Positions 27,724-45,344 of a stretch of 64,000 bases of DNA are shown here, one piece after another; the first letter of the stretch is position 1; each line of letters begins with the position of its first letter. The position numbers and the translations under genes were made by a program. Origin of the DNA: Minisyncoccia bacterium (GTDB lineage: Bacteria; Patescibacteriota; Minisyncoccia; UBA6257; JAAZHW01); NCBI GenBank assembly GCA_041550235.1, contig JBFEPE010000001.1:8003-72002 (forward strand), in the 5' to 3' direction. The notes beneath the pieces were generated by a model. That model did not search any database. It was not told the origin of the DNA and was given only the letters and a program-made list of their open reading frames with translations.

Positions 27724-27748
27724 CCTTAAAAAGCATTACAGATTAGTA

Positions 27749-28660
27749 ATGTTTTTTATTATTATGGATATACAAATTTTAGTTCGTAAGTTTTGTGATT
27801 ATTCAACTTTTATTAAAGGATATACTCCGCAAACAATTAAGAGATATAGGCAGACAATTCGTTCCTATATCAAATTCGCTAATATCACTGAAATAGAGGA
27901 AGTGAATTTAGAGAATGTTCGTAATCTTTTTTATTCTGGCCGAACCCAAAGGAATTGGTCAACCAATACCTATATCTGCTACCATAAATCTTTAATTGTT
28001 TTCTTTCGTTGGTGTGTAAGTGAAGGCCACCTTCAATCCAATCCAGCCGAAGAGATTGAAGTGCCGAAACTGGAAAAGAAAATTCCGCCTAAATTAACCA
28101 AGCAAGAAACGATGAGGATATTGGAAGTAGTAGAAAATTATCCTTATATCAATGATTTTTTAAGGCAAAGAAATTATGCTATCTTTGCCACAATCATAAT
28201 GGCAGGATTGAGAAAAAATGAGATTATCAATTTAAGGTGTGTTGATATAGATATTGAAAATCTCTCTATTTTTATTCGGCAGGGGAAAGGAAGTAAGGAT
28301 CGGATTGTGCCAATCAATTACAAATTAGCTGAAATTTTAAGCAAATACGAAAAAGAAAGAAAAAGATTGAAAAAAACTTGCCCCGAATACTTTGTTTCTC
28401 TCTATAAAAATATGGGGATTAGGCATAATGGCTTAAAGTTATTGGTAGAACAAATATCAAAAGCATCGGCGATTAAATTCACTCTTCACAAATTAAGGCA
28501 TACCTTTGCCACAATGATGTTGGAGGGAGGATGTGATATTTATTCTCTCTCTAAAATGATGGGCCATAATGATATAAAAACAACCACAATTTATTTGGCC
28601 GCCAGCATAGAGCATTTAAGAGAACAGATGATTAAACACCCAATGGGAGATGTTTTGTAG
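27749..28660 (+). CDS. Tyrosine site-specific recombinase/integrase (XerC/D-like)
   Basis: C-terminal catalytic box HKLRHTFATMMLEGGCDIYSLSKMMGHNDIKTTTIYL (R..H-R..Y). 303 aa. Adjacent to the tRNA. Confidence 0.9.
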   Translation: MFFIIMDIQILVRKFCDYSTFIKGYTPQTIKRYRQTIRSYIKFANITEIEEVNLENVRNLFYSGRTQRNWSTNTYICYHKSLIVFFRWCVSEGHLQSNPAEEIEVPKLEKKIPPKLTKQETMRILEVVENYPYINDFLRQRNYAIFATIIMAGLRKNEIINLRCVDIDIENLSIFIRQGKGSKDRIVPINYKLAEILSKYEKERKRLKKTCPEYFVSLYKNMGIRHNGLKLLVEQISKASAIKFTLHKLRHTFATMMLEGGCDIYSLSKMMGHNDIKTTTIYLAASIEHLREQMIKHPMGDVL

Positions 28661-28730
28661 GCACTCTTGGATTTACACTTGACTTTTTGTGTGTTTATGG
28701 TTAATATAGTAAGGGAGGTAAAAATAAAAA

Positions 28731-29326
28731 TGTTTACAGAAAAAATAAAAAAGAAAAAAAGAAACATTTCTCAATGCGAATTAACAAGTAGAAGTTCTGA
28801 GAAGCAAAAATCAGAATTAAAAAAGAAAAGAAAGGGATTGGCCAATAAAGACATAAGAAATCTTTTGAAGTTAAGCTCATTTGTTAAGGAGATAATGGAT
28901 TATAATGGTTATAGGGTATTTTTAACTCCAAATGGAGCTGGTGAGATCAGTGGAAGGTTTAAGCAGGTAAAAAGACATATATTAGAGCATAAAATCAAAG
29001 TGAAAACTTCAATACAAAGGTTATTGGAGTATAAAAAAACACTCATAGAAAATGGATCTGGAATAATAGAAAAAGATATTGCCACTATAAACAGAGAAAT
29101 ATATTTTAACTATCATTTATACAAACAAACGAAAAACAGAGAAAAGAGAATTAGAAAAAAGAACAACCCAATAATTGAAGGAATTTCTGAAAGTGGAAAA
29201 GAAAATAGACGACAAAGAAAATTATCAGGAGATGAAGATCAGCAGGTAAGAATAGCTTGGAAAAAATCCCACGATATTATAACCAAAAGTAAAACAAGGA
29301 ATGCTAATCTCAAAAAAGCTAAATAA
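28731..29326 (+). CDS. Hypothetical basic protein (listed ORF from 28667; ATG at 28731 preferred)
   Basis: SD gggaggt precedes 28731. Lys/Arg-rich. No family recognised. Confidence 0.4.
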
Positions 29327-29400: not shown

Positions 29401-29592
29401 AAATCAATAATTTAATATGCCTAACCCCTATGATTATTCATAGGGTATGGCGATAAATCCATCCCTGTATTGAGCTCCTCGTTCAGCTTATCAGGGATGG
29501 TCATATTCGGAAACGGATATGGATGATCGCAAGATCGTCAGGTTGGCGGGGAGCTTTGTGTTCCAAGTCAACCACTAAAACCATCCCTAAAT
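29401..29592 (+). ncRNA. Candidate structured cis-regulatory RNA in the 5' leader of the 29593 membrane-protein gene
   Basis: Locally GC-richer. Hairpins ccctatga-ttat-tcataggg; ccatccctg...cagggatgg; tattcg-GAAA-cggata; gatc-GCAA-gatc; ggttg...caacc. A second ccatccc copy abuts the start codon. Confidence 0.4.
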
Positions 29593-30564
29593 ATGAAAAA
29601 CAAAAGCGAAAAATCAGATATATTTGCTCGCATATTCTATATATTTGGTTTTATCCTCAATAGATTATTTTATGTTTTCATTTCTCTATTGGTTATATAT
29701 CTAATTGAAGAATTTGTTTTCAAATCATTAGATATAGCCATTCCTTTTAATAATTTCTTTTGGTGGCTGATTATTTTAGTTAATTTCACAGGATATTTTC
29801 TAAAAATGTTTGGCTGGAAACAAGAAATTAAAATTACCGGCCAAGCATTCATTATCATCTCTTTTGTTTGGATGTGGCTTCAATTTTCCTTTGGTCAATT
29901 CTTAATCTTATTTCCCATTTATTTCTTAACCAAAACAATTGCCGATGTGATTATGATTTTAATAATAAGTTCAGATAAGTTTAATTCCAGTATTAAAGAA
30001 AAAGCCCAGAGAAGAGAAAAAAGCAGATGGATTATCAAAAAAGCTGAAAAGAGAATTTGGTCTGCGAGAGAAGGAGAATGGATTTTCAAGAGAATAAAAG
30101 AATTAACCCAAGAAGAATACCCTAATTTAGAAAAATGGCTTAAAGACGAACCCGAAGATTTTATAGAAAGTATAAAACAAAATGTTTTTATCAATATAGA
30201 GAAAGATATTAAAACAGAGACCGAAGATTTTTTTGAAGAAATTAAAAATCTTTATCTGACAGAAGAGATGAAAATAGCTCTTGATAGGTTAGAAAACGAC
30301 AAAAAAGAAGGCATAACTCGTTTTGAAGGCCTATCCGAAGAAATATCTTTTGACGGCCAAAATACAATTCTTTTTGGAGTAAAACTGACCAAATATCCAA
30401 TCATTGAAGAAAAACTATTATCCAATCCCGAAGTAGTTTATATGAAAGTCCAAGAAGTATCTGAAAAATATCATAACAACAATTACGAAACAGCCATCTC
30501 AATGATTGAAATGGATTTAACCCCTCTTTCAGAAGAAAAAAGAGAGCAATGGTGGAACAGATAG
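29593..30564 (+). CDS. Hypothetical membrane protein (4-5 N-terminal TM helices, acidic cytoplasmic C-terminal domain)
   Basis: Hydrophobic segments LFYVFISLLVIYLI, FWWLIILVNFTGYF and FIIISFVWMWLQF. No family recognised. Confidence 0.5.
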   Translation: MKNKSEKSDIFARIFYIFGFILNRLFYVFISLLVIYLIEEFVFKSLDIAIPFNNFFWWLIILVNFTGYFLKMFGWKQEIKITGQAFIIISFVWMWLQFSFGQFLILFPIYFLTKTIADVIMILIISSDKFNSSIKEKAQRREKSRWIIKKAEKRIWSAREGEWIFKRIKELTQEEYPNLEKWLKDEPEDFIESIKQNVFINIEKDIKTETEDFFEEIKNLYLTEEMKIALDRLENDKKEGITRFEGLSEEISFDGQNTILFGVKLTKYPIIEEKLLSNPEVVYMKVQEVSEKYHNNNYETAISMIEMDLTPLSEEKREQWWNR

Positions 30565-30705
30565 ACCCCATTTGGCACCAAATTGGCACACGGAAAGGGA
30601 TGAGCCAAAAAACATAGGAATATACTCAAATCAAAGAAACAAGCCCAAAAATTGAAAATTTGCCCTCAAATTCGGCACTCCACAGATATATTTCATTGAT
30701 TTCTA

Positions 30706-30774
30706 CCTCAAGAAGAGTAGTATTAGGAATATATAATATCAGAGGATAATAAATCCCAATACTCTTCTTGAGAT
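30706..30774. promoter_or_regulatory. 18-bp inverted repeat upstream of the R-M operon (possible operator)
   Basis: ctcaagaagagtagtattagg ...30 nt... cccaatactcttcttgag. Confidence 0.35.
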
Positions 30775-30837
30775 AGGGATTAAATTTTTAACAAAATCAT
30801 TGATAAATAGTTAAAAATAAGCGATAATATAGATATT

Positions 30838-33216
30838 ATGGATATAAAAATAGTAAATAAATATCTAAGTTCTCAAAAATTGAAAGCAGTGGAAATGCTT
30901 GATTTTGAAAATGGGAAAATAAAGTATTCTGATTTAATTAAACAATACAGGGAAATAAAGAATTTTAAAGGAAATGAAGAAATTGTTAGAGCTTATTTAT
31001 TATCCAAACTTTCTAATGAATTAGGATATAAGTTGGAAAATATTGAAATAGAAAAAGAATATGATATTGGTCGGCCAAAGGTTAATAAGCCAAGAATTGA
31101 TTTAATCGTCAGGGACGATGAAGGAAATGCTTTTCTATATGTTGAATTAAAAAGCCCTGAGGAATATGAAAAAAACAAGGATGAAGTAATTGAAAAACAA
31201 TTATTTGGCTTAACTTCTCAGGAAAAGGGACAAGGAAAAAATGTGAAATATCTTGTTCTCTATTCTTTTGAAATTATAAACGAAGAAATAAAAGATAGAG
31301 CAATTATTATTGATTATGAAAAATATTCATCTTTTGATAAGTGGGAAGAAGAAAGAAATTTTACTGATGAATTGCCAAAAAGATACGGTAAAGCCCAAAA
31401 AGAGCCATACAAAAAAGGTGGCAAAAAAGACTTGAGAGCCGATTTTGCTCCCGAAGAATTAGAAGCAAAAAGAAAAAATCTTCATAATGTTTTATGGGGT
31501 GGGGGCGGAACAGACGATAACGAAATCTTTGCCTCTTTGGTAAGAATTATTTTAGCTAAAATTCAAGATGAAACTGAAAGAAAAAATGGTGAAAAATATG
31601 AATTTCAGATTTTTTCTTTTCAAGACGGGGATAGCTTTGAAAGTAATGAAGAAATTTTTGAAAGAATAAATAAACTTTACAGAAGGGCTTTGAAGGAAAA
31701 AATGTATATTACCGATGAAAACAAGATAGAAAAATCTTTTGTTATTGATGAAAACAAGTTTTCTATTAGTAAATTAAAATATACTATTTCCGAGTTAGAA
31801 GAATATTCTTTTGTTGATGGAAAAGATAGCTTTAATGGAAAGGATATTTTAGGCCAATTTTTTGAGGGTATTGTCCGAGACGGCTTTAAGCAAAATAAAG
31901 GGCAATTCTTTACTCATTCTAATATTGTCCAATTTATCCTTTATGCCCTTCAATTAGATAAATTGGCGATAGAAAGAATAAATAAAGATAAAGAAATTCC
32001 TTATTTGATTGATCCTTCGGCTGGAAGCGGAACATTTTTGATTGAGTATATGAATTTTATTACTCAAAACATTAAATACAAACAAAAAGATAAATTAGAT
32101 AATAACCGAGATATTGAAGATAAATTCAATGACTGGTTTATGCCTTATAATAGAGAGAATAAATGGGCTAAAGATTTTATCTATGGCGTAGAACATAACT
32201 TTGATTTAGGAACTGCCTCAAAAGTTAATATGATTTTACACGGAGACGGCTCAACAAATATTTTTGTTAAAGACGGACTTCTTCCTTTTAATTACTATAC
32301 CAAAGACAAAGGAGTTAATATTCTTGATGATGAGAAAGAAGATAAAGAATATTTTGATAAGAATATCAACGGAAAATTTGATGCTATTATTACTAATCCG
32401 CCTTTCTCGGTGGATTTAGATAAAGATACTAAAAAAACACTAAAAGATAGTTTTGTTTTTGGGGATAAGAAAAATTCTGAAAATCTTTTTGTTGAAAGGT
32501 GGTATCAATTATTAAAAGAGAATGGAAGATTGGGAGCAGTCTTGCCTGAAAGTGTTTTTGATACTACGGAAAATAAATATATTAGATTATTTTTATATAA
32601 ATATTTTAAAATAAAGGCGGTTGTTTCTTTGCCTCAATTAGCTTTTCAGCCCTATACTTCCACTAAAACCAGCTTGCTTTTTGCCCAAAAGAAAACCCAA
32701 GAAGAAATTAAAAAATGGGATGAATTATGGGCGACTTATTCTAAGGATTATAGTCAATTAAAAACAAGGGTAGAAAAAGAGGTAGAACATTTTATCAAAG
32801 GAAAAGAAATTCAAAAGAGTTGGGCTATTGCTAAAGAAACAGAGAAAAGAAGAAAGGATAATGTTCTTTATCTTCTTAATCAAGTTATAGATAGAAAGAT
32901 TGATTTAGATTTATCTCTTCAAGAATTGGTTGAAAAATATCAAGACGAAATAATAGATCTGTTGAAAATAGAGAAAGAAACAGATGTTTTTGGCTTTGTT
33001 AATGCTTGGTGGGTATTTGGTGCTGTTTCTAAAGAATTGGATTATCCAATCTTTATGGCCGAAGTTGAAAATGTTGGTTATAAAAGGACAATAAGAGGAT
33101 TAAAACCAATGCCAAATGATTTATTCAGAAGGAATGAAAATGGCGAAATTATGATTGATGATAATAAAAAAGAAACCGCTTTAGATTTTATGAGGTCGGA
33201 TGTGGAGTGGGATTAA
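30838..33216 (+). CDS. Fused restriction-modification enzyme: N-terminal PD-(D/E)XK nuclease + gamma-class N6-adenine DNA methyltransferase (Type IIG/IIB A-subunit-like)
   Basis: PRIDLIV...FLYVELK (D...ExK). MTase motif I LIDPSAGSGTFL. Motif IV AIITNPPFS. HsdM-like VVSLPQLAFQPYTSTKTSLLF. 792 aa. Confidence 0.8.
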   Translation: MDIKIVNKYLSSQKLKAVEMLDFENGKIKYSDLIKQYREIKNFKGNEEIVRAYLLSKLSNELGYKLENIEIEKEYDIGRPKVNKPRIDLIVRDDEGNAFLYVELKSPEEYEKNKDEVIEKQLFGLTSQEKGQGKNVKYLVLYSFEIINEEIKDRAIIIDYEKYSSFDKWEEERNFTDELPKRYGKAQKEPYKKGGKKDLRADFAPEELEAKRKNLHNVLWGGGGTDDNEIFASLVRIILAKIQDETERKNGEKYEFQIFSFQDGDSFESNEEIFERINKLYRRALKEKMYITDENKIEKSFVIDENKFSISKLKYTISELEEYSFVDGKDSFNGKDILGQFFEGIVRDGFKQNKGQFFTHSNIVQFILYALQLDKLAIERINKDKEIPYLIDPSAGSGTFLIEYMNFITQNIKYKQKDKLDNNRDIEDKFNDWFMPYNRENKWAKDFIYGVEHNFDLGTASKVNMILHGDGSTNIFVKDGLLPFNYYTKDKGVNILDDEKEDKEYFDKNINGKFDAIITNPPFSVDLDKDTKKTLKDSFVFGDKKNSENLFVERWYQLLKENGRLGAVLPESVFDTTENKYIRLFLYKYFKIKAVVSLPQLAFQPYTSTKTSLLFAQKKTQEEIKKWDELWATYSKDYSQLKTRVEKEVEHFIKGKEIQKSWAIAKETEKRRKDNVLYLLNQVIDRKIDLDLSLQELVEKYQDEIIDLLKIEKETDVFGFVNAWWVFGAVSKELDYPIFMAEVENVGYKRTIRGLKPMPNDLFRRNENGEIMIDDNKKETALDFMRSDVEWD

Positions 33217-34672
33217 AAAAACTATGGGAAACAACCAAACTTCAGAAAAAATAAAAATAGAGATAAAAGATGTTATGCCTGACTTTAAAGAGCATTTATC
33301 ATTAAAAGGAAATGATAGAGTGTTTTTTTCTGGTAAATTTGGAATTGGAAAGAGTTATTTCTTAAAAGAATTTTTTAGATTAGGAGAGGAAAACTATGAG
33401 GTTTTTTATCTATTACCAACGAGGTATCAAATAAGTCCCAATGAAGATATTTTAGATTTTATAAAATACGATGTTTTAGTTGATTTAATAAATAAAAATA
33501 AAGAAATTTTTAAAGGCAACAATTTTAATAGCTTTATAGATCTAAAAAGATTGTTTTATATTTGGGGCAAGGATAATTTTTACGAGATTTTTAAAAAGGG
33601 GTTAGATTTTATTCCAAAATTAGGCAAACCTTTAAAAGAAGTCGTTAATTTAATTGATAATTTTAGAAATTTCAAATACGAAGTTGAATTAGGCGACAAG
33701 GGTTTTGTAGATAATTACATCAAGGAAATAAAGTCCAAAGATATAGTTGAAAGCGATCATTTAAGTTATTTATTAACTGAAAAAATAAACAATTTAAAAG
33801 GAGAAAAAGAAAGTGTTTTGATAATAGACGATTTAGATAGAATTGACCCAGACAATATTTTTAGAATTTTAAATATTTTTTCTGTTTATTTCAACGAAGA
33901 TAATTCTGAAATGCCTAATAAATTTGGTTTTGATAGGATTATTTTTGTTGGCGACCATAAAAATATAAGAAGTATTTTTAACCATAAATATGGAGAAAAT
34001 ACCGATTTCAGAGGTTATTTCAATAAATTTTTTAGATATAAAATTTATGAATTTGATAACGACAAGGCTATAGAAAATGCTGTAAGTATATTGATAGATA
34101 GTATGAAAGAAGTTGGAATAAATGTATCAAAAATTTTTGAAAAATTAGGATACGGCAGGCTTTTATTGGAAGATGTTTTAAAGAGATCAATAAATTTAAA
34201 ATCAAATAAAGAAAAGGTTAATTTAAGGCAACTTTTAAATGTTTATCTTTTTCCAAGTCTTCATTTAAAAGATAACAAATACTATAACGATCAATTTCTC
34301 TCTATTGCTAAGAAAATGATCCAATTTATAGATTTATCAATTAAGTTTTTAATTGATATTTTTGGTGGAGATGAAAAATTTTTGATAGAAGTTTTGAATA
34401 AGATAATTCTTGAATCTGGATTTTATAAAAATCAAAATTATAGAGATGACCTCTATAATCATTATTCAAGAGCTATATTAAGTGAGATTTTAAATAAAAA
34501 TTTTGTAAAAGATAGTAATAATCCTGCGGAAGAAAAGTGGGAAGAAAATTTAGGTAATGTTATAGGGAATGTGGCCGGAGGCCCTGAATTAAAAGTATTT
34601 TATACCTTGTTAATTAAATACTTAGAAAGTGGTAAATATAAAAAGGATAGTATTAGAAATTATGATTTATAG
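33200..34672 (+). CDS. KAP-family P-loop NTPase
   Basis: Walker A FSGKFGIGKSYFLKEF. KAP-type Walker B VLIIDDLDRIDPDNIF. 490 aa. Overlaps the preceding gene by 17 nt. Confidence 0.65.
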   Translation: MWSGIKKTMGNNQTSEKIKIEIKDVMPDFKEHLSLKGNDRVFFSGKFGIGKSYFLKEFFRLGEENYEVFYLLPTRYQISPNEDILDFIKYDVLVDLINKNKEIFKGNNFNSFIDLKRLFYIWGKDNFYEIFKKGLDFIPKLGKPLKEVVNLIDNFRNFKYEVELGDKGFVDNYIKEIKSKDIVESDHLSYLLTEKINNLKGEKESVLIIDDLDRIDPDNIFRILNIFSVYFNEDNSEMPNKFGFDRIIFVGDHKNIRSIFNHKYGENTDFRGYFNKFFRYKIYEFDNDKAIENAVSILIDSMKEVGINVSKIFEKLGYGRLLLEDVLKRSINLKSNKEKVNLRQLLNVYLFPSLHLKDNKYYNDQFLSIAKKMIQFIDLSIKFLIDIFGGDEKFLIEVLNKIILESGFYKNQNYRDDLYNHYSRAILSEILNKNFVKDSNNPAEEKWEENLGNVIGNVAGGPELKVFYTLLIKYLESGKYKKDSIRNYDL

Positions 34673-34681
34673 AGAATTAAA

Positions 34682-36124
34682 ATGCTAAAAAATTTTACAA
34701 CACAATTTAGAGATTTAGGCAAAGAAACATCAATTAGATTTGATTTCAGTTTTATTGATTTTCAAAATACTTTTTTAGTTAAAGATTATTATTCTTTTAG
34801 TGATTTATTTGAAATTAAGGAGAACAACAGAAAGGATATTTCTGAAATAAAGGATGATTTTTACTATTCAGAAATAGGAAATGTTAATAAATTGGGAGAG
34901 GTTGATCCAGTAAAATTAAATTTTGATGAAAAGTCTGAAGAATATTTAGATTATTTTAAGAAAATAGAGAGGGGAGATATTATTGAGGTCGGGGAAGGGG
35001 AAATTCTAATATCAAAAGTTCGTCCTAATCTAAAGAAATATGTTTTTATTGATGATAAAAATAAAGAATATTTTTATACTTCTGCTTTTATTCACTTAAA
35101 ACCAAAAAAATTAAATAAAGTTTTATATTATTCATTAAGAAGTTTATTTTTTGATAATTTAATAGCTATTTCAAGACAGGGCAAAGGTTATCCTACTTTG
35201 AAAAATGAAGATTTATATTACTTAAAATTCAATAAAGAAATGATTGATAAATTAGAAAGTAAAGAAAAAGATATAAATAGCAAAATAATCCCCAATGAAA
35301 ATAAAATTAAGGAATTGAAAGACAAAATAGAAAAACCGCAGGATATAATCAATGAAGTTTTTGCTAATGAATTTAGTTTTGATTTAAAAAAATTTGAGGA
35401 ATTAAAGAAAGAAAATATTTTTTCTGTTAATTTTAGTGATTTTTCTAATTACCACAGCCTAAGATTTGATTTTAAAAACAAGAAATTTTTTCCAATTTTT
35501 GAAGATATTATTTCAAAACTTGATACAATTAGACTAAAAAATATTGTTTTAGAAGATCCGCTTTATGGAGCAAATGAGCCTGCTATTGATGGTGTTGTTG
35601 GTAATGATATAAGATATGTAAGAATAACTGATATAGATGATTTGGGGGAATTAACAAATAACGAATGGAAAACCGCCGAAAATATAGACGAAGTTTATTT
35701 ATTAAAAGATTTAGATTTTCTTTTTGCGAGAAGTGGTAATACGGTCGGTAAAAGTTTTTTATATAATTCAAATAAACACGAAAAATCTATTTTTGCTGGA
35801 TATTTTATAAAATTTAAAATTGATTTTAAAAATTTAAATCAATTATTTTTCCTTTATTATTCAAAATCTTTTATTTTTGAATTATGGAAAAATGGAATTG
35901 TAAGAGTAAAGGGGCAACCAAATATAAATGCTAACGAATATTTAGAACTTCAAATTCCTAATATCCCATTATCTAAACAAAAAGAAATAGTTAAAAAAAT
36001 AAAATCTCGATTAGATAGACAAGAAGAAATCAAAAAAGAAATAGAAAAAGAGAGGGATAAGATAGATAAAATAATTGAAAATGCTATAATACAAACACTT
36101 GAGGGCTATAAGCCCCTGCTCTAA
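34682..36124 (+). CDS. Type I/IIB restriction-modification specificity (HsdS-like) subunit with two target-recognition domains
   Basis: Two TRD signatures (ISRQGKGYPTLKNEDLYYLKF; ARSGNTVGKSFLYN). C-terminal coiled-coil spacer KQKEIVKKIKSRLDRQEEIKKEIEKERDKIDKII. 480 aa. Confidence 0.7.
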   Translation: MLKNFTTQFRDLGKETSIRFDFSFIDFQNTFLVKDYYSFSDLFEIKENNRKDISEIKDDFYYSEIGNVNKLGEVDPVKLNFDEKSEEYLDYFKKIERGDIIEVGEGEILISKVRPNLKKYVFIDDKNKEYFYTSAFIHLKPKKLNKVLYYSLRSLFFDNLIAISRQGKGYPTLKNEDLYYLKFNKEMIDKLESKEKDINSKIIPNENKIKELKDKIEKPQDIINEVFANEFSFDLKKFEELKKENIFSVNFSDFSNYHSLRFDFKNKKFFPIFEDIISKLDTIRLKNIVLEDPLYGANEPAIDGVVGNDIRYVRITDIDDLGELTNNEWKTAENIDEVYLLKDLDFLFARSGNTVGKSFLYNSNKHEKSIFAGYFIKFKIDFKNLNQLFFLYYSKSFIFELWKNGIVRVKGQPNINANEYLELQIPNIPLSKQKEIVKKIKSRLDRQEEIKKEIEKERDKIDKIIENAIIQTLEGYKPLL

Positions 36125-36152
36125 AATTCGGGGTGAGGGTTTTTGTAAAAAT

Positions 36153-37706
36153 ATGAAATTATTATTAGCTGGGCCAGGGACAGGAAAAACAACAAAAATA
36201 AAAGAGATAATTAACTCCAAATCTGAGAAAGATAGGGTTCTTGTTATATCTTTTACTAATGCTACGGTTCAAGATCTTTTAGCCGATTTTCGCAAAGATG
36301 AAATTAACATAGAAGAAAAAGATTGTAGCACTTTACATAAATATGCTCTACGAATTAACCACCAAAAAAAATTACATATTTTGAATGAGTTTGAAAAAAA
36401 GATATTAGAATTTTATGCTAAAAAATTTAATTCTAATTTTGATGATTTATGTAGAACGCTTGGCTGTATAACCTTTGATCAAATGATCATACAAACATCC
36501 GAATATATAAAGTCAAATCCTTTATATCTAAACGAAATTATTGATGATATTGATTTGTTTATTGTTGATGAATACCAAGATTTCAACCTTATTGAAAGAA
36601 ATCTTATTGATCTAATAGCACAAAAAGCAAAAGATGTTTTTGTACTCGGCGATGATGACCAATGTATCTATGATTTCAAGGACGCAAATTCCGATGGCAT
36701 TATTGAGTTGTATAATTCAAAAAATGTTGAAAATGTTTCGCACGATCATATTTGTTATAGATGCCCCGATAAAATAGTCAGTGCTTGTTTTAATCTAATA
36801 AATAAAAACCAAAAGAGAATTAAAAAAGAGTGGAGGCCAAGTGAAAAAGAGGGAGATCTGATATTTAATCAGATATTAACACAACAGGAAACATCAGAAT
36901 ATATTTTGAATGAGATAAATAAAATTAAACAAGATGACCCCACTTCTTCTATTATGATATTATCTTCAGTAAGGTTTGCCGTTGAGGATTTATTAAATTT
37001 TTTTGATGATAACAAAATGGATTATGTTGATTTTTGGAAACCCAAAATGGATTTAGAAAAATTAAAAAGAATTTGGGAAATAAAAATCGTTTTTGGCGAA
37101 AAAAAATTATTAAATCTTTTATTCCTAATACAATTAAGCATTAAAGGAAAAAATAGCCACATAAAAAAGTGTCAAAAAATAATAAATGAAAATTTGGATT
37201 TTGATGATTTATTAGATTTTTCAAAAGAAAACAATTTATTGGGAGATGAAGTTATTAAATTATTTGATACTAAAATATCCTTAGAAGACATTCTAAAGAT
37301 TAAAAAATATGAATTCTTAAGCGATCACATAAGAGAAGAGTTTCTAAAAGAAGATTTAGAAAAATTGACAAAAATTGTATCGGAGCCAGTAGAATTTAAT
37401 CCAAGTGGAATAAATGTATCTTCTATACACAAATCAAAGGGACTACAGGCAGACTATGTTTTTATATTGGGGGTTGTTGAGGGAATAATACCTAATTCTC
37501 TAAAGGGATTAGATACGATTGAGGCTCAAAGAAGATTATTATTTGTTGGAATGAGTAGGGCAAAAAAGAGGCTTTATCTCGTCTCTACCGCTGAATGGGA
37601 TGGCAAATATGTTCATAGGGTTGATAAAAACAAATTTAAGTTTGATCCAAAATCAAGAAAACACTTAGCAAGCTCATCAATTTTTATTTCAGATCTTGAT
37701 TTATAA
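36153..37706 (+). CDS. UvrD/Rep-like superfamily 1 helicase (short, ~517 aa; listed ORF begins 36099)
   Basis: Walker A LLAGPGTGKTT. Motif II FIVDEYQDFN. Motif III VFVLGDDDQCIY. Motif V SSIHKSKGLQADYVFI. Motif VI LLFVGMSRAKKRLYL. Confidence 0.8.
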   Translation: MKLLLAGPGTGKTTKIKEIINSKSEKDRVLVISFTNATVQDLLADFRKDEINIEEKDCSTLHKYALRINHQKKLHILNEFEKKILEFYAKKFNSNFDDLCRTLGCITFDQMIIQTSEYIKSNPLYLNEIIDDIDLFIVDEYQDFNLIERNLIDLIAQKAKDVFVLGDDDQCIYDFKDANSDGIIELYNSKNVENVSHDHICYRCPDKIVSACFNLINKNQKRIKKEWRPSEKEGDLIFNQILTQQETSEYILNEINKIKQDDPTSSIMILSSVRFAVEDLLNFFDDNKMDYVDFWKPKMDLEKLKRIWEIKIVFGEKKLLNLLFLIQLSIKGKNSHIKKCQKIINENLDFDDLLDFSKENNLLGDEVIKLFDTKISLEDILKIKKYEFLSDHIREEFLKEDLEKLTKIVSEPVEFNPSGINVSSIHKSKGLQADYVFILGVVEGIIPNSLKGLDTIEAQRRLLFVGMSRAKKRLYLVSTAEWDGKYVHRVDKNKFKFDPKSRKHLASSSIFISDLDL

Positions 37707-37715
37707 ATAAAAACT

Positions 37716-38603
37716 ATGACAAAAAAAGAGAATGATTTGTTTATAAACGATTTTCCAATGGTAAATTCAGATGAAGAATTAGAAGAATTATCATTACAAT
37801 ACCCAAAATATGATCCATATTATATAGCCAGTGGCTCAATAAAGGACAGAAAAGAGTATTTTGAAAAACTTTGGAAGATTTATAGAAACTATGCTGATAA
37901 GCATTTTTTGAAAGAAGTTAAAACCAATTTTCATCAGAGGAGTTGGGAGATGTATTTATCTAATTTATTTATTGAAAATGGATTTGAAATTTCCTCTAAA
38001 GATAAGGGGCCTGATATAAAAATTGATTTGGGAGATAGGAATTTATGGATAGAATGCGTGGCTTCAAAAAAAGGCGAGAAATCTGATAAGGTTCCAGATA
38101 TGATGTATGAGGTTGTTCAAGATGTGCCAGCAGATAAAATGTTATTAAGAATAACCAACTCAATAGATAAAAAATTTAAGAAATATCAAAAATATGTGAA
38201 AGACAGCATAATAAAAAAAGGGGATTATTATATTATTGCTGTGAATGCCGGAGGGTTTGGATATATTGTTGATACAGATATGCCTTTAATTCTTAAATGT
38301 TTAATTTCTATTGGTTTTTGGAGTTATAAAAAATTAGAAGATGGATCATTTAGTAAGCCATTTCTTAGCAGGAGAGAATATATAGAAAAACAAAACAAGA
38401 AAAAAGTAAAAATGAATTATTTTGAAGATAAGAAATATAATGGAATTAGCGGAGTTATCTATACTCCAAACAATGTTCTAAATTTAAGAGATAAAGATGA
38501 TTGTATATTTATTAGCAATCCCTTGGCTAAAAATGAGTTGCCAAAAAGTTATTTACCATTTATTCGTGAAGTCAAAATAACAAAAGATAAAATAATTTTT
38601 TAA
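37716..38603 (+). CDS. Hypothetical protein with possible PD-(D/E)XK nuclease core
   Basis: GPDIKIDLGDRNLWIECVASKKG resembles a D...E.K active-site arrangement. Otherwise unrecognised. Confidence 0.4.
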   Translation: MTKKENDLFINDFPMVNSDEELEELSLQYPKYDPYYIASGSIKDRKEYFEKLWKIYRNYADKHFLKEVKTNFHQRSWEMYLSNLFIENGFEISSKDKGPDIKIDLGDRNLWIECVASKKGEKSDKVPDMMYEVVQDVPADKMLLRITNSIDKKFKKYQKYVKDSIIKKGDYYIIAVNAGGFGYIVDTDMPLILKCLISIGFWSYKKLEDGSFSKPFLSRREYIEKQNKKKVKMNYFEDKKYNGISGVIYTPNNVLNLRDKDDCIFISNPLAKNELPKSYLPFIREVKITKDKIIF

Positions 38604-38612
38604 TACGAAAAT

Positions 38613-39065
38613 ATGATAAAAATAAGAAACAAAAAAATTGAAGTTTTGGTTGCCTATACTACTCCCGAAATGTGGGATGCTGTTGAAGATACAAAAATAG
38701 CAGTTCAGGGCCAAAGTGCCAAAGACGCTGATTATTTTGCTTTTGCGAGAATGGGATTAAAAGAAAATAAAGGAAGAGCGATAATTACTCATATTGCCGA
38801 AATTGGCAAAACAAAATCAAATGTTCCAGTTGAAGAATATATTAAAAAATTTCCTAAATTATCAGAATACTTTAGAAAAAGAAATTGGAATGGTTTTAGT
38901 AAGGAATACTATTTAGAGAATATCCGAGAATTAAAAAATCCCATTTATCATAAAATAGGCGACAAAGCCAAGGGAAGAGTAAGATTTTATACAAATTTGA
39001 ATGAGTTAAAAAATGCTAATTTTATGAGGGATATTAAAACATTAAGTCAGTTAAATAAAAGATAA
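38613..39065 (+). CDS. Hypothetical protein (150 aa)
   Basis: Tightly linked within the operon (10-nt gap). No family recognised. Confidence 0.4.
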   Translation: MIKIRNKKIEVLVAYTTPEMWDAVEDTKIAVQGQSAKDADYFAFARMGLKENKGRAIITHIAEIGKTKSNVPVEEYIKKFPKLSEYFRKRNWNGFSKEYYLENIRELKNPIYHKIGDKAKGRVRFYTNLNELKNANFMRDIKTLSQLNKR

Positions 39066-39321
39066 AAATATGGTAGTTTATTATGGTCCGCCAGATATGA
39101 GCGGGATTGAAAAAGAAATAGAGAAATCAAATTCTTCATCTACTCGTTATAACAAGAAAATGCTTTGGGTGGCTGTGGCAACTTTGATTTTTACCATTAT
39201 CGCAGTGGCTATAAGTGCTTATTTAATACTTTGATTTTTTCAATAATTGGTTTAGAAATTTTATTGTTAGAATTTTTATTAAAGTTGAAAATCATAAAGA
39301 AATTAAAAAACATTAAAAACT

Positions 39322-41454
39322 ATGGAAATATCACAATTATTATCAGCAATAAACAAAAAAGAAATAGTCGTTCCTGAGTTCCAAAGAGAATATGTTTGGA
39401 GATTAGAACAAGCAAAAGAATTGATGACTTCTCTGTTTAAGGATTATCCAACAGGAAGTATTTTAGTTTGGCCAACAAATAAACCGCCAAAGATAAAAAA
39501 CAATGCTGTTGATATTAAAGATATTGGGACGGTTAGGGTTTTATTAGATGGCCAACAGAGATTAACCACTTTATATCTCTTAATTAAAGGACAAATTCCG
39601 CCATATTACAGAGAAGACGACATAACGAATGATCCAAGACATTTATATTTCAATTTAGAAACAGGAGATTTCAACTACTATCAAAAACAAAAAATGGAAG
39701 GGAACTCTTTTTGGAAAAGAGTTGTTGATTGTTTCAATGATGATTTTGATATTTTTTCTTTGGAAAATGATATAAAAGAAAAAGGTGGAGATTTTTCTGA
39801 ATTAGGGAGAAAAATAAACAATAACATTGGAAAATTAAAAAGTATTTTAAGAGAAGATTATCATATTCAACAAGTTCCCGATGGGGTAGAAATTGATGAA
39901 GCTATTGATATTTTTGATAGAGTTAATTCAAAAGGAACAAAACTTACTGATGCCGAGCTTGTTTTAACTCATATCGCTGGAAAATGGCCGGAAGTTAGAG
40001 AGAAGATGAAAGAAAGCATAAGAGAATATAGAAAAACTGGTTTTGATTTTAGTTTAGATTTTCTAACAAGATGTATGACAATAATTATTACCAAATCAGC
40101 CCTCTTTGAAAAAATGAATGATGAGATTTATAAGAATACAAGAGAAGAAGATTATAAAGAAAAATGGAAAAATCTAACCAAGATATTTAATTATTTGCTT
40201 CCAATCTTAAAAGAAAATGGTTATATAAACGGAAGTGGAGATTTAAGCACTAATAATGTTTTAGTTCCAATAGTTGCCTATATTTCTCAAAATTCTTTTT
40301 CTTTTCCAAATACTCCAATTAGAAACTATTTCTTATACTGGATGTTTTTGGCTTCTGTTTGGGGCCGATATAGTAGCCGAACCGACCAAAGTTTAGACAG
40401 AGATGTTTATCTTGCTATAAACAGCCAAAATCCGATAGATGACTTACTTAAAGAAATAGAAGACCAAAGGGGAAGATTAGAGGTAAAACAAGCAGATTTA
40501 GAAGGGAGAGGATCGGCACACCCGCTCTATAAAATGCTTGGAATTTTGGCTCGGTATAATAAGGCGATTGACTGGAAGAATGGCGGATCTCTCAATGAAA
40601 CATTAGGAGAAGAATATGCTATTCATAGTCATCATATTTTTCCACAAGGTCTTTTATATAAAAATGGATATACTTCCGATAATCATTTAGATAAAAAAAT
40701 TGTTAATGAGATAGCAAATAGGGCTTTTATAACAAGAGATGCCAACCTTGATATTTCAGACAAGAAACCGCTTGATTATCTAAGAGAAATAAAGAAAAAA
40801 TATCCCGAAGCTCTAAAACAGCAATTTATACCTGAATTTGAAAATTTATGGGATATAGGCAAATTTAGAGATTTTTTGGCCGAAAGAAGAATTTTAATAG
40901 CTCAATCTATAAATGATTTTCTTGATAATCTAAAAGCTGAAGGTGAAAAGATAGAGATTGATAGAGTTGATTATGAAAAGATTATAGAAAGAGGAGAAGA
41001 CAATTACATAGAGTTCAAATCTTCTTTAAGGTGGGATATGAATAGAAATACAACTAACTCAGATTTAAAAAAAGAAATAGCCAAAGCAATGTCAGCCTTT
41101 ATGAATACGGAAGGAGGCAGATTATTTATTGGAGTTAATGATGAGGGTGAAATTTTAGGATTAGATAATGATTATAAGACATTAGGAACACGACAAAATA
41201 AAGACGGATTTCTTCAAAAAATGGATCAGGTAGTTGAAAATTACTTAGGAAGGGAATTTTTTGAGTATATTAGCATTAAGATAATAAAAATAGATGATAA
41301 GGATGTCTGTTTAGTTGAATTAACTAATAGCGGAAAACCTGTCTATCTGAAATTAAAAGACAAAGAGGAGTTTTATATTAGGGGATCAGCCTCTTCTCGT
41401 CCATTAAGTTTGAGTGAAGCCAATGAATATATTAAAAATCATTCTTGGGAATAA
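39322..41454 (+). CDS. GmrSD-like Type IV restriction-type protein: DUF262 (ParB-like NTPase/nuclease) + DUF1524 (His-Me/HNH) + C-terminal Schlafen/AlbA_2 domain
   Basis: N-terminal VVPEFQREYVW (DUF262). Central EYAIHSHHIFPQGLL...NRAFITRDANLDISDK (DUF1524). C-terminal IEFKSSLRWD...AFMNTEGGRLFIGVNDEGEILGL (AlbA_2). Confidence 0.75.
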   Translation: MEISQLLSAINKKEIVVPEFQREYVWRLEQAKELMTSLFKDYPTGSILVWPTNKPPKIKNNAVDIKDIGTVRVLLDGQQRLTTLYLLIKGQIPPYYREDDITNDPRHLYFNLETGDFNYYQKQKMEGNSFWKRVVDCFNDDFDIFSLENDIKEKGGDFSELGRKINNNIGKLKSILREDYHIQQVPDGVEIDEAIDIFDRVNSKGTKLTDAELVLTHIAGKWPEVREKMKESIREYRKTGFDFSLDFLTRCMTIIITKSALFEKMNDEIYKNTREEDYKEKWKNLTKIFNYLLPILKENGYINGSGDLSTNNVLVPIVAYISQNSFSFPNTPIRNYFLYWMFLASVWGRYSSRTDQSLDRDVYLAINSQNPIDDLLKEIEDQRGRLEVKQADLEGRGSAHPLYKMLGILARYNKAIDWKNGGSLNETLGEEYAIHSHHIFPQGLLYKNGYTSDNHLDKKIVNEIANRAFITRDANLDISDKKPLDYLREIKKKYPEALKQQFIPEFENLWDIGKFRDFLAERRILIAQSINDFLDNLKAEGEKIEIDRVDYEKIIERGEDNYIEFKSSLRWDMNRNTTNSDLKKEIAKAMSAFMNTEGGRLFIGVNDEGEILGLDNDYKTLGTRQNKDGFLQKMDQVVENYLGREFFEYISIKIIKIDDKDVCLVELTNSGKPVYLKLKDKEEFYIRGSASSRPLSLSEANEYIKNHSWE

Positions 41455-41690
41455 TTATGCTATCAAAATAAGAAACAAAAAATTTTATCAAAAAGCATAT
41501 AGGGATAATTTTGATGAAGAAATTATTAGAAAAGAAATAGGCAAAACAGGTGTTAGAATAACCAATTTATTTGAGAGAGTTTTTGGCCTATTTAAATTAA
41601 AATAAATAGAATAGAATGGATTATTATTGAGAGAAAAGAATTAAAAAACTGATAATTGAAACCAGTTTTTAATACTCCGAAATTAAACCA

Positions 41691-42575
41691 TCAGTCATCA
41701 TCCACCAAATCAGTCTCAAAAATCGCATAAATCGGATAATGGTCTGAAATGTCTTCAATCAAATCTTGGTCCGTAATCCCGTATTCTTGGTCAAAGTAAA
41801 AGACACTGGCTGTATTGGTTGAGTATTCAGAGAAATAAGTGTCTGCCTTCATAACAATCCGGTCATAAGTCCAGTCGGTTTTAGTCATTGTATCCATATC
41901 ATTACTGATTACCCAGTAATGATTTATTGTTTTGAAGGGATTTGTTGTTGTATTTTCATCAAAATAACTTCCATCGGCATTAAAGTCTCCCATTACAATA
42001 ATATCTTTTTCATTGGGATTTTGAGAAAGAATATAATTATATACATCTTCTAAATGGGCTATTTCTCTGTTTGTATCATCGGGTTTAGTGTGAATCCCTG
42101 CTAATGTAAAATCAAAATCTCCACTTCTGAAAGAAGCAATATATGGTTCTCTCTCAAAAACATTTCTTATGTCATTATAGATATAATCAGAGCCAGTAAT
42201 AAAATTTACCTTGTCTGTATTATAGAAGTAAGCATAAGATTCTTTACTATTTGTTCTTCCTACCCCCTCGCTTTTTACAAAGGCATATTTATCAGAGCCA
42301 ATATCTTCATTTATCTTTTCTAAATAATAATCTGCTGTTTCTTCTTGGGCATCTCTTATTTCCTGAACCAACATAATATCAAATTCTTGAGCTATTTTAA
42401 CTAATTGCTCCATTACTTCGGGCTTATTTCTTTTTGTTTCCCCAAATATCTGAATGTTAAAAGCCCCCACCTTGATTGGACCGGGAAGAGTAGATTGACT
42501 TGTTCCAAAGAATACAAGAACTCCAGCCAAAATTGCTGGAATTATGATTTTTAATAATTTTTTGATATTAAACAT
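41691..42575 (-). CDS. Secreted/membrane-anchored endonuclease-exonuclease-phosphatase (DNase I-like) family nuclease
   Basis: N-terminal signal/TM. EEP motifs GAFNIQIFG, MLVQE, GIHTKP, GDFNA and SDHYP. Confidence 0.75.
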   Translation of the reverse strand: MFNIKKLLKIIIPAILAGVLVFFGTSQSTLPGPIKVGAFNIQIFGETKRNKPEVMEQLVKIAQEFDIMLVQEIRDAQEETADYYLEKINEDIGSDKYAFVKSEGVGRTNSKESYAYFYNTDKVNFITGSDYIYNDIRNVFEREPYIASFRSGDFDFTLAGIHTKPDDTNREIAHLEDVYNYILSQNPNEKDIIVMGDFNADGSYFDENTTTNPFKTINHYWVISNDMDTMTKTDWTYDRIVMKADTYFSEYSTNTASVFYFDQEYGITDQDLIEDISDHYPIYAIFETDLVDDD

Positions 42576-43480: not shown

Positions 43481-44308
43481 ATGAAAGATAATAAAGAAAA
43501 CAAAAAATCCTATTTAACTCAAGGAGATAAGAAATTATTGATATCTTTTAGAAGATTTTTGAAAAGAGAGCCAGTTTTATTAAAAATTCAAGATTTAAGA
43601 AAGAAATATGATATACCAAAAAATGGATTAAAAAAGAATGAAGTTTTTAAGCCAAATGAAGATGGATATCAAATCTATGTGGGAGATTTTGATTTTCCAA
43701 TCAGGATTGATTTTAATTCCGCCCTTAGAAAAGATATTAAAGAATATCTTCTTGAAGAATTTCCTGTAAAATCTAATTTTATTATACATCTAACGAAGAT
43801 GTTTATTTTGTATAACAACATTGATGATTATATAGATTTTGATAAATCCAAAGAAGAAGTTGATTTAGAATTATTTAACATATTTGATTTAGTTGATGAT
43901 ATGGAGATAGGTTATGATGTTATGAATGATCGTGATGCTGGGACTGGTCAAATTCACGGCTTTATTGAAGAAATAATGAATAGAGGAATGGAATATCCAA
44001 TTTCAATAGGAATACCAAACGGAGCCACTAAAAGGGATTTATTAGAATATATAAAGAAAAATTGGAATAAAATTGAAAAATTAAGAAATTCCAAAAAAGA
44101 AAATAAAAAATGGTTAGCCGTAAGAAAAAGTAATCCCGAGATTGAGAGAAGAGATGATTTTATTTATAAGCATAGAAAAAAATCATTAAAAGAAATAAAG
44201 GATTTAGTTATAGAAAAATTTGAAGGAAGTTTAGATGGCGATAGAAGGATTTTATATACTTGGCAAATTAAAAATATAATTGATAGAGAAAAGAAAAAAA
44301 GGAGCTAA
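43481..44308 (+). CDS. Hypothetical protein (275 aa) upstream of second integrase
   Basis: No family recognised. Lys-rich termini. Confidence 0.45.
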   Translation: MKDNKENKKSYLTQGDKKLLISFRRFLKREPVLLKIQDLRKKYDIPKNGLKKNEVFKPNEDGYQIYVGDFDFPIRIDFNSALRKDIKEYLLEEFPVKSNFIIHLTKMFILYNNIDDYIDFDKSKEEVDLELFNIFDLVDDMEIGYDVMNDRDAGTGQIHGFIEEIMNRGMEYPISIGIPNGATKRDLLEYIKKNWNKIEKLRNSKKENKKWLAVRKSNPEIERRDDFIYKHRKKSLKEIKDLVIEKFEGSLDGDRRILYTWQIKNIIDREKKKRS

Positions 44309-44417: not shown

Positions 44418-45344
44418 ATGAAAGATCTATTTGAACAATTTATAAAACAGCAAGAATATGTTGAAAGGAAAAGAAAAAAGACGATAGAAAATTATCGGCA
44501 GAATTTTAATTTATTGTTTGGCTTTAAGCCTGATTTGAAATTGGAAGATTTAACCGAAGAAACAATGATTGATTTCTTTGAGTATCTTGATACAAGGGAA
44601 AGAAGGGTCGGAAAGAAAATGATTGTTAGAAAAATTAAAAATTCCAGTATCGCCACAATAAGAGGAAAATTAGAGGTATTTTTTAGGTGGTTAGTTGATA
44701 GGGAGCATATCAAATCTAATCCATTTGAAAAAATACCATACCCGGAAGTTTCCTACACAAGCAAAGAGGCTTTCACGAAAGAGGAATTTGATAAAATTTT
44801 TATAAACATCGTTAGAGATATTAAATGGGTCAATGATTTTTTGCGAAAAAGAAACACAGCAATGATAATGACTTTAGTATTAACTGGGATAAGAAGAGAA
44901 GAGTTATTAGAATTAAAGCTGTCTGATATTGATTGGAAGAATAAAAAAATAACAATTAGAGATGAAACTTCTAAATCTAAAAGAACAAGAACTATTCCTA
45001 TGTCGCCAGATTTGAGGCCATTTTTAGAGGATTATTTAATAACCAGAACTAATAAGAAAAATAGTTTTCTTTGGGTCAATGGCAGAGATGAAAAATTTAC
45101 TGAACACGGCTGGAAGCATCTTGTTAAAAAACTAAAAGAAGAAACAGAAACTAATTTCCGCACCCATAGATTTAGACATACATTTGCTTGTAATTATTAT
45201 CGGCAGAGAAAAGATCCGGTTGGATTACAAAAAATGATGGGACATCAAGATATTAAAACTACTTTTAAGGTATATTTGCGATCCATAGATGATGATGATT
45301 TAACAAAAGAAATGAATAAATTTAAGATTTCTAAGTTTTATTAA
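44418..45344 (+). CDS. Tyrosine site-specific recombinase/integrase (second copy, divergent from 27749)
   Basis: HRFRHTFACNYYRQRKDPVGLQKMMGHQDIKTTFKVYL. N-terminal SAM-like core-binding domain. 308 aa. Confidence 0.9.
   Translation: MKDLFEQFIKQQEYVERKRKKTIENYRQNFNLLFGFKPDLKLEDLTEETMIDFFEYLDTRERRVGKKMIVRKIKNSSIATIRGKLEVFFRWLVDREHIKSNPFEKIPYPEVSYTSKEAFTKEEFDKIFINIVRDIKWVNDFLRKRNTAMIMTLVLTGIRREELLELKLSDIDWKNKKITIRDETSKSKRTRTIPMSPDLRPFLEDYLITRTNKKNSFLWVNGRDEKFTEHGWKHLVKKLKEETETNFRTHRFRHTFACNYYRQRKDPVGLQKMMGHQDIKTTFKVYLRSIDDDDLTKEMNKFKISKFY

Follow-up and report, generated by a model that had tools for sequence, protein, structure and literature searches.

Gene content and organization of the locus

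The stretch of DNA analyzed here, referred to as the window, comprises 64,000 nt of contig JBFEPE010000001.1 from a Minisyncoccia bacterium (assembly GCA_041550235.1). It contains a cluster of seven tightly packed open reading frames (ORFs) on the + strand that spans positions 30838-41454 (ORF list) and is built around a predicted Type IIB restriction-modification (R-M) enzyme. The genes of the cluster, together with a small additional ORF located between the last two of them, are as follows.

30838-33216, + strand: gene 1, RM subunit, 792 aa
33200-34672, + strand: gene 2, KAP NTPase, 490 aa
34682-36124, + strand: gene 3, specificity (S) subunit, 480 aa
36153-37706 from an ATG (517 aa) or 36099-37706 from a TTG (535 aa), + strand: gene 4, UvrD-like helicase
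37716-38603, + strand: gene 5, PD-(D/E)XK-fold protein, 295 aa
38613-39065, + strand: gene 6, orphan, 150 aa
39070-39234, + strand: 54-aa ORF in the gap between genes 6 and 7, with a C-terminal hydrophobic, transmembrane-like segment (hydropathy 2.57)
39322-41454, + strand: gene 7, GmrSD-AlbA_2 protein, 710 aa

An earlier note, made from the sequence alone, had described seven co-directional genes, and all of these ORFs were present on the + strand with the coordinates and junctions that it gave; its domain calls for genes 1 to 4 and 7 likewise agreed with matches in Pfam, PADLOC, and the PDB. Genes 1 and 2 overlap by 17 nt (33200/33216), genes 2 and 3 are separated by 9 nt (34672/34682), gene 3 ends 28 nt before the ATG of gene 4 (36124 to 36153), and genes 4 and 5 and genes 5 and 6 are each separated by 9 nt. 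The widest gap of the cluster, 256 nt, lies between genes 6 and 7, and the 54-aa ORF found there carries a gene annotation in the publicly available assembly of this contig (L001). No terminator-like hairpin was found on the + strand within positions 30400-41800.

A BsaXI-like Type IIB core

The products of genes 1 and 3 are both homologous to subunits of BsaXI, whose structure has been solved (PDB 8w0p, 8w2p, and 8w2q), which bears out the proposal that the two genes form a Type IIB A/S pair of BcgI-like logic. Gene 1 matched RM.BsaXI (PDB 8w0p_A) with an E value of 3e-282, residues 5-764 of the query being aligned to residues 7-772 of the 916-residue chain at an identity, judged by eye, of ~60%. 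The protein combines an N-terminal PD-(D/E)xK nuclease domain (HSDR_N_2) with a gamma-class N6-adenine methyltransferase domain (N6_Mtase) according to Pfam and keeps the nuclease-connector-methyltransferase-knob order of BsaXI. Mutation of E73, D90, E105, or K107 inactivates BsaXI (PMC11997821), and in the alignment the equivalents of all four residues are identical in gene 1 (4/4), which also carries both the S-adenosylmethionine (SAM) motif DPSAGSGTF and the catalytic motif NPPF. Gene 3, for which there was no Pfam match, matched S.BsaXI (PDB 8w0p_C) end to end (1e-65, residues 9-467 versus 9-472) and was also matched by the PADLOC Specificity_I/II models. It keeps the layout of two target recognition domains (TRDs) and two conserved regions (CRs) in the order TRD1-CR1-TRD2-CR2, with identities to S.BsaXI of 44%, 40%, 23%, and 43%, respectively. 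Since TRD2 is only 23% identical, at least one half-site, the second, should differ from the CTCC of BsaXI. The specificity of the gene 1/gene 3 enzyme, as predicted from the TRDs, should therefore be new with respect to BsaXI, and this relative may offer a new Type IIB specificity.

BsaXI is an (RM)2S heterotrimer (PMC11997821), and both its restriction and its modification activities have been reconstituted in vitro from RM and S alone (PMC9159934), so that the gene 1/gene 3 pair would in principle be self-sufficient. By analogy with BsaXI, the two TRDs of S would let the (RM)2S complex recognize a bipartite site, and the complex would transfer methyl groups from SAM to adenine; DNA lacking this methylation would be cleaved to either side of the site, with no need for ATP.

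The pair differs from BsaXI in further respects. A KAP NTPase gene splits RM and S here, whereas the published account of BsaXI gives two reading frames (PMC11997821), and gene 1 is shorter than RM.BsaXI (792 versus 916 aa). It lacks the C-terminal paddle, since residue 792 is its last and the alignment reaches no further than chain residue 772; the paddle residues D816 and E823 are required for cleavage by BsaXI, and a short, knob-only (paddle-less) subclass of BsaXI relatives has been described (PMC11997821). In an exhaustive search of representative sequences, natural short RM homologs of 778-801 aa (P0352, P0375, P0380, P0390, and P0394), which align to the last residue of gene 1, were recovered alongside long homologs of 908-1020 aa. 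Because these natural short homologs exist, gene 1 is assigned by sequence to the paddle-less subclass, the absence of the paddle being native. Truncation of the RM gene by insertion of the KAP gene was considered as an origin of the short form and rejected because the natural homologs reach the last residue of gene 1. A natural paddle-less form is relevant to the mechanism by which enzymes of this kind cleave both strands.

The KAP NTPase

Gene 2 encodes a KAP-family P-loop NTPase (Pfam KAP_NTPase, 3e-10) with the Walker A motif GKFGIGKS and the Walker B motif LIIDDLD; residues G48, G50, K51, D210, and D211 are invariant across 34 homologs. A hydropathy scan found no transmembrane segment, consistent with a soluble protein. 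The sole PADLOC match was to PDC-S20 (7e-11, residues 157-455 versus 135-425 of 450), a partial match that leaves the N-terminal P-loop part uncovered. PDC candidates are defined by their embedding in BREX, DISARM, or Type I R-M operons (bioRxiv 10.1101/2024.01.29.577857). A HEPN-type nuclease in the C-terminal half was rejected, as there was no conserved Rx4-6H among the invariant columns.

Relatives of gene 2 number more than 1296, and a scan of 185,579 species genomes gave 80 loci. The order hsdM-KAP-hsdS-(x)-hsdR was found in eight of them (L012, L016, L017, L020, L026, L027, L032, and L033), with junctions that nearly abut or overlap and with the methyltransferase (M), S, and restriction (R) subunits confirmed by Pfam in three. 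An M, S, or R gene lies within 4 kb of the KAP gene in 11 of the 80 loci; these include 10 of the 28 closest relatives versus 1 of the 52 more distant ones, which are mostly from Bacteroidota. Among the operons of L012, L016, L017, L020, and L027, identities are 66-73% for M, 56-67% for KAP, and 68-75% for R, and the hsdM-KAP-hsdS-hsdR arrangement of this lineage (e.g., L016 8520-14927) is, as judged from sequence identity, inherited as one unit. Its hosts are one gammaproteobacterial metagenome-assembled genome (MAG) and several Patescibacteria or unclassified MAGs, and transfer of the complete operon across phyla therefore appears to take place. L026 represents another Type I family, its M being 24-27% and its KAP 37-45% identical to those of the rest. 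Given two Type I families and the Type IIB case described here, the KAP gene has entered the M/S slot of at least three R-M lineages. Members of the KAP family also occur singly amid housekeeping genes (L002/L008) or next to a Type II R-M system (L003-L006).

The UvrD-like helicase

Gene 4 encodes a compact superfamily 1 (SF1) UvrD-like helicase (Pfam UvrD-helicase/UvrD_C/AAA_19) in which the motifs AGPGTGKT, DEYQD, and VGMSRAK are intact. Only generic UvrD-type models were matched in PADLOC (GajB, RTasHel, and NERD+UvrD), the best being GajB at 2e-41. The closest homologs, at 55-58% identity, sit in or beside R-M operons, and the contexts recovered for the helicase (Hel) were as follows.

Window: S-Hel-nuclease
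L170: M-DUF4145-S-Hel-nuclease-KAP-R
L176: M-x-x-S-Hel-R
L177/L178: M-x-S-Hel-R
L172/L173: M-M-S-R-Hel-Ymh-MauJ
L174: Hel ~3 kb from a Type I system
L175: Hel divergent from a Type II system, then an Abi_C protein
L181: HTH-Hel convergent with a Type IIG fusion
L171: Hel alone, in a toxin-antitoxin-rich region

The gene 3' of the helicase varies, its product being HsdR or a protein of the PD-(D/E)XK, Hypoth_Ymh, or Abi_C type; Abi_C and Hypoth_Ymh, together with DUF4145, we take to be HEPN-type families. The helicase family shows a strong association with R-M systems, but its members have no constant partner and can also occur by themselves. We know of no description of this family as an embedded gene. 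Scans of viral contigs with genes 1, 4, and 6 returned one distant helicase locus and nothing else, and a plasmid search with the gene 4 helicase gave no match. Between hsdM and hsdS in L176 (3070-4295) and L177 (1672-2154) lie match-less ORFs of 154, 252, and 160 aa, and the M/S junction seems to accept inserts in general.

The PD-(D/E)XK protein

Gene 5 has no Pfam or NCBIfam match. It partially matched the PADLOC models PD-T7-5 (1e-19, residues 61-251 versus 43-234 of 346) and PD-T7-1 (3e-12, residues 51-253 versus 142-343 of 452) and also matched phrog_8571; the protein is predicted to be a distant relative of all three, sharing the PD-T7 core without being a member. It belongs to an uncharacterized family of ~96 members of ~300 aa in which Q74, R75, E78, D100, and E113, followed by a K, are invariant. 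An AlphaFold model built from 26 sequences was confident (predicted local distance difference test [pLDDT] score, 91.8; predicted template modeling [pTM] score, 0.90), and its fold matches to nucleases, though weak, were consistent. These, together with the conserved D100/E113, back the assignment of gene 5 as a putative PD-(D/E)XK protein.

The contexts of gene 5 homologs were taken from 80 metagenomic loci plus looked-up contigs, representing 73 distinct loci, in 19 of which an M, S, or R gene lies within 4 kb. In six distinct loci (L089, L121, L139, L140, L142, and L148), the homolog is placed between a nuclease-methyltransferase fusion of ~670 aa (HSDR_N_2 plus N6_Mtase) and an S gene, as recognized by Pfam (e.g., L121 5966-10279). 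No HsdR was detected in the available sequence of these six loci, and no helicase was found in the nuclease-methyltransferase plus S loci. The gene 5 homologs of this fusion lineage are 61-87% identical to one another versus 40-74% for the methyltransferases that they follow, and the three-gene operon may represent an undescribed three-component Type IIB-like R-M family. Homologs are also located directly 3' of unrelated methyltransferases of 650-830 aa or M-S fusions (L126, L147, and L163) and in canonical Type I operons (L091, L107, L113, and L151); overall, the family directly follows methyltransferase genes of at least three lineages. The remaining upstream neighbors (of 51) were HNH_5 (7), Methylase_S (5), HNH (4), GmrSD_N (4), DUF4145 (4), and others, and the downstream neighbors were mostly miscellaneous. 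Plasmid relatives share only 25-29% identity and are solo genes annotated as hypothetical.

Genes 6 and 7

The 150-aa product of gene 6 has no match in Pfam, PADLOC, NCBIfam, or PHROGs, and among the 178 loci plus the window it matched only its own copy, forming a sequence cluster of one; a single-sequence AlphaFold2 model was unusable (pLDDT 35).

The GmrSD-AlbA_2 enzyme that had been noticed in the same direction as the other genes proved to be real. Gene 7 contains GmrSD_N (2e-32) and a C-terminal SLFN_AlbA_2 (AlbA_2/Schlafen) domain (7e-20) in Pfam and matched PADLOC HEC-05, which corresponds to BrxU, at 8e-51, with residues 2-536 covering positions 27-595 of the 600-residue model. Structural matches were to PDB 7p9k (2e-12), deposited as a DUF262 domain-containing protein, and to SLFN5/12. 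The DGQQR and HHIFPQ motifs are visible, and Pfam DUF1524 was not reached at an E value of 0.01. Gene 7 is accordingly predicted to encode a BrxU/HEC-05-like GmrSD Type IV restriction enzyme (DUF262 plus a His-Me finger region) fused to AlbA_2. Enzymes of the BrxU/HEC-05 type are reported to act on modified DNA as single, independently functioning proteins (PMC11411939; bioRxiv 10.1101/2024.01.29.577857). Because the largest gap of the cluster precedes it, gene 7 is treated as a separate Type IV module.

Comparison with named defense systems

The earlier note had recognized no standard or named system in this arrangement, and indeed no named multigene system of PADLOC or NCBIfam fits the cluster; the PADLOC matches considered for genes 1 and 4 were the top 25, lower ones being weaker than ~1e-3 and ~3e-9, respectively. 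MADS (mad1-8) resembles the cluster in being a multigene operon that encodes both an N6 methyltransferase and an S subunit. It was rejected, as MAD2 scored 191 bits against a cutoff of 720 and MAD5 scored 36 against 400 (NCBIfam), reflecting generic M/S similarity only. The MAD3, MAD4, MAD6, MAD7, and MAD8 models had no match in the cluster, and MAD6 to MAD8 are mandatory for calling MADS (bioRxiv 10.1101/2023.03.30.534895). No Hma model was among the PADLOC matches listed for genes 1, 2, and 4, and BREX, DISARM, and Type ISP gave no relevant PADLOC match, DrmMI (1e-3) covering the methyltransferase motif only. Gabija likewise places a UvrD-like SF1 helicase gene next to a nuclease gene, and GajB-like models match gene 4, yet no gene of the cluster matches GajA (ABC-ATPase plus Toprim), and the adjoining nuclease has instead a PD-(D/E)XK fold and is usually found without a helicase. 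A Type I R-M system was rejected for want of HsdR, no ORF of the 64-kb window matching five HsdR seeds at an E value of ≤1e-4. Nor does a Type I system with a divided R subunit hold as a general explanation, since the helicase family coexists with full HsdR in L172, L176, and L177. Tmn, reportedly the transmembrane KAP NTPase defense gene of the 2020 work of Gao et al., is similar in being a KAP-family P-loop NTPase that serves as a defense-island gene; it differs in that gene 2 has no transmembrane segment and no Tmn match in PADLOC.

The cluster also follows a described pattern. Embedded genes are frequent in Type I R-M, BREX, DISARM, and Hma operons, and many of these genes are defenses, a relationship used for discovery as "guilt-by-embedding" (Payne et al. 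2024, bioRxiv 10.1101/2024.01.29.577857). For example, TgvAB is embedded in a Type I operon of V. cholerae and works without HsdR (PMC11411939). The present cluster shares with these operons the placement of unrelated defense-type genes between the genes of a methylation-based system, as well as the matches to PDC-S20 and HEC-05/BrxU. It differs in that the host operon is Type IIB, whereas those of the screen were Type I, BREX, DISARM, and Hma, and in that a single operon holds a stack of three or four accessory genes. What is new here is the Type IIB host operon, the stack of three or four inserts, and three experimentally uncharacterized families; the embedding phenomenon itself is already known, and the locus is an uncharacterized instance of it rather than clearly a new machine.

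Embedded modules or a composite system

We read the locus, with a probability of roughly 0.6, as a Type IIB R-M operon loaded with embedded, independent accessory defense genes (KAP, helicase, and PD-(D/E)XK), next to which the GmrSD-AlbA_2 gene is a separate element. Beyond the homologies and catalytic motifs described above, each of the three families is recurrently embedded and each also occurs outside R-M operons, with stand-alone positions across the three families in L002/L008, L171, L181, and L086-L088. Under this reading, each product would be enzymatically active, the modules would be independent of one another, and the KAP, helicase, and PD-(D/E)XK proteins would have antiphage roles. 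Four genes would have been added to an RM/S scaffold, the KAP gene between RM and S and the helicase, PD-(D/E)XK, and orphan genes appended behind S, and the GmrSD-AlbA_2 enzyme would act against phages with modified DNA. The R-M operon would serve the KAP, helicase, and nuclease modules as a shared vehicle for expression and transfer, and the island would therefore layer several lines of defense. If so, the locus would be a compact natural form of layered immunity, in which modification-blind Type IIB cutting is combined with modification-dependent GmrSD cutting and three candidate defenses. Guilt-by-embedding would then be extended from Type I, BREX, DISARM, and Hma to Type IIB systems, and three families would be nominated: the soluble KAP NTPase, the R-M-linked SF1 helicase, and the methyltransferase-following PD-(D/E)XK protein.

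The seven genes had been put forward in the earlier note as one candidate composite system, and this proposal found no support in that form, as the KAP, helicase, and PD-(D/E)XK families are each found in many other contexts and the only other locus that unites the three, L170, appears to be independently assembled. L170 (positions 1-7143 of an activated-sludge contig) is a Type I operon with four embedded genes in the order M-DUF4145-S-UvrD-like helicase-PD-(D/E)XK-KAP NTPase-R, the last being partial. Helicases that lack a nuclease neighbor share 55-58% identity with the window helicase, versus 41% for that of L170; for the window nuclease, identity is 47-49% with copies that lack a helicase neighbor and 36% with that of L170. 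Because these identities are discordant, the helicase-nuclease adjacency would have been assembled at least twice, and the S-helicase-nuclease adjacency seems, on this sequence evidence, to have arisen independently in the window and in L170. An adjacency assembled twice fits a shared niche preference or a selective advantage and not an anciently co-inherited module. The composite proposal is further weakened by the fact that embedded genes in R-M operons have already been described and by the sufficiency of the BsaXI pair in vitro (PMC9159934). The check for a conserved gene neighborhood that accompanied the proposal was borne out in part, in that parts of the neighborhood recur at other loci.

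Several points weigh against independent modules and count, to differing degrees, toward an integrated composite system, in which the KAP, helicase, and PD-(D/E)XK proteins would work with the (RM)2S core. They could do so as restriction enhancers, the SF1 motor and the nuclease degrading DNA after recognition and offsetting the missing paddle, or as guards that detect when a phage inhibits the R-M complex and then set off a second response, as PrrC does with EcoprrI. The three families are, as far as their sequences indicate, candidate defenses only, and no effector domain is recognizable in the KAP protein. The first six genes overlap or are separated by gaps of ≤28 nt without an internal terminator, so that their co-expression and physical cooperation are conceivable. 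The KAP gene appears in the same slot, after M and before S, of three R-M lineages that are unrelated by sequence. The PD-(D/E)XK gene directly follows methyltransferase genes of several lineages, and its conservation, higher than that of the methyltransferase in the fusion lineage, hints at a functional dependence on the R-M core. The helicase adjoins S in the window, L170, L176, and L177, and L170 repeats the S-helicase-nuclease order together with a KAP NTPase within a single Type I operon. Since gene 1 is without the paddle whose D816/E823 are needed by BsaXI, a second nuclease could be needed for cleavage. PrrC, moreover, is reported to occur almost exclusively as an embedded gene of Type I R-M systems (bioRxiv 10.1101/2024.01.29.577857).

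Against integration, each family is also found without any R-M neighbor. The helicase replaces no motor in L176 and L177, because a complete HsdR is present there, and short, paddle-less RM homologs form a natural class, while nuclease-methyltransferase plus S loci occur without the helicase. The apparently independent assembly of the helicase-nuclease pair also counts against it, as does the KAP NTPase of L170, which gave no tblastn match to gene 2 at 1e-4 and belongs to a different subfamily. We therefore regard an integrated system as unlikely, although it is the foremost alternative to the embedded-module reading. If the accessory genes did depend on the R-M core, they would constitute a new regulation or back-up layer for R-M systems. 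A broader version of this idea, which we hold to be just as doubtful, is that the KAP, helicase, and PD-(D/E)XK proteins form a guild of R-M-dependent modules that dock on the methyltransferase-specificity core of Type I/IIB enzymes, instead of being free-standing defenses, either as guards triggered once phage anti-restriction proteins have disabled that core or as an ATP-driven degradation arm; in the latter version, a paddle-less, weakly cutting Type IIB enzyme would be turned into a processive restriction machine.

A second alternative is that the helicase and PD-(D/E)XK proteins, perhaps with the orphan, make up a Gabija-like helicase-nuclease system of their own, merely located downstream of the R-M genes, with a UvrD-type sensor/motor, a nuclease effector, and the KAP gene as a separate single-gene insert. 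The helicase scores best against GajB models (2e-41), genes 4, 5, and 6 lie only 9 nt apart, and putative effectors follow the helicase as PD-(D/E)XK in the window and L170, Hypoth_Ymh in L172, and Abi_C in L175, although no recognizable effector adjoins the helicase in two of the eight other helicase loci (L171 and L181). A promoter-like site with an extended -10 element is present at 36063-36090, just 5' of the helicase gene, but promoter-like matches were no commoner than in shuffled sequence (60 versus 65 expected), which makes the scan uninformative. Only 1 of the 73 distinct nuclease loci of the metagenome scan (L170) has the helicase, no GajA-like ATPase-Toprim gene is present, and the orphan gene 6 has no homolog in any related locus, all of which leaves such a system decidedly improbable. 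Finally, the accessory genes might be selfish or regulatory passengers (addiction modules or repair/recombination factors moving the island or the S gene) that insert at the M/S junction, where the M/x/S slot holds many unrelated small ORFs (L176, L177, L170, and L085), compatible with a recombination hotspot, and the antiphage role of the three families is itself only a prediction from sequence; the passenger reading is very hard to credit, given that their neighbors elsewhere are overwhelmingly defense genes (R-M, HNH, GmrSD, AbiE, and toxin-antitoxin), that the nuclease is related to the PADLOC defense models PD-T7-5 and PD-T7-1, and that Pfam finds no transposase or recombinase domain in the KAP, helicase, or nuclease protein.

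The tRNA-Thr island and other features of the window

The R-M operon with its embedded accessory genes lies in an island of ~17.9 kb that is located at a tRNA-Thr gene and flanked by 45-nt repeats. The features that delimit the island are as follows.

27651-27725, + strand: tRNA-Thr (GGU) (ARAGORN; Rfam tRNA)
27683-27727, + strand: left attachment repeat, equal to the 3' 45 nt of tRNA-Thr (direct repeat search)
27749-28660, + strand: tyrosine integrase at the left island end (Pfam Phage_integrase, 1e-29)
44418-45344, + strand: second tyrosine integrase, near the right island end (Pfam Phage_integrase, 2e-31)
45552-45596, + strand: right attachment repeat, a copy of the tRNA-Thr 3' part at 91% identity

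The G+C content is 24-30% within the island versus 32-38% beyond it, and this drop, together with the tRNA-Thr gene, the 45-nt repeat, and the two integrases, confirms that the island is tRNA integrated, as had been suggested. As part of the embedded-module reading, the cluster is taken to be a defense operon gained by horizontal transfer.

The island also contains, at 29418-29539, a sequence that matches the Rfam LOOT RNA motif over its full length (86.6 bits versus a gathering score of 46.4), located 5' of the R-M operon between two family-less ORFs (28667-29326 and 29593-30564). The rest of the island (41691-42575 on the - strand and 43481-44308) includes a nuclease/phosphatase gene of the Exo_endo_phos family, which runs on the opposite strand, as well as a DUF2188 ORF and a match-less ORF of 275 aa. 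Just beyond the right attachment site, an 83-nt intergenic element is repeated at 45628-45710 and 48274-48356 (83% identity). Its hairpin core, GAGGGC-AAAA-GCCCCTGCTCT, is also found at 36089-36123, at the 3' end of the S gene and before the helicase start, and may be a regulatory or recombination motif.

Elsewhere in the window, a bacterial 23S rRNA gene (15016-19428) measures 4413 nt for a 2925-nt model, with ~1.5 kb inserted in an intron-like manner. This span contains no ORF of ≥150 aa, no 16S gene adjoins the 23S gene, and a 5S gene is located at 20259-20375. The host is probably a candidate-phyla-radiation bacterium, since an interrupted 23S gene without an adjoining 16S gene is typical of that group and many homologs are from Patescibacteria MAGs.

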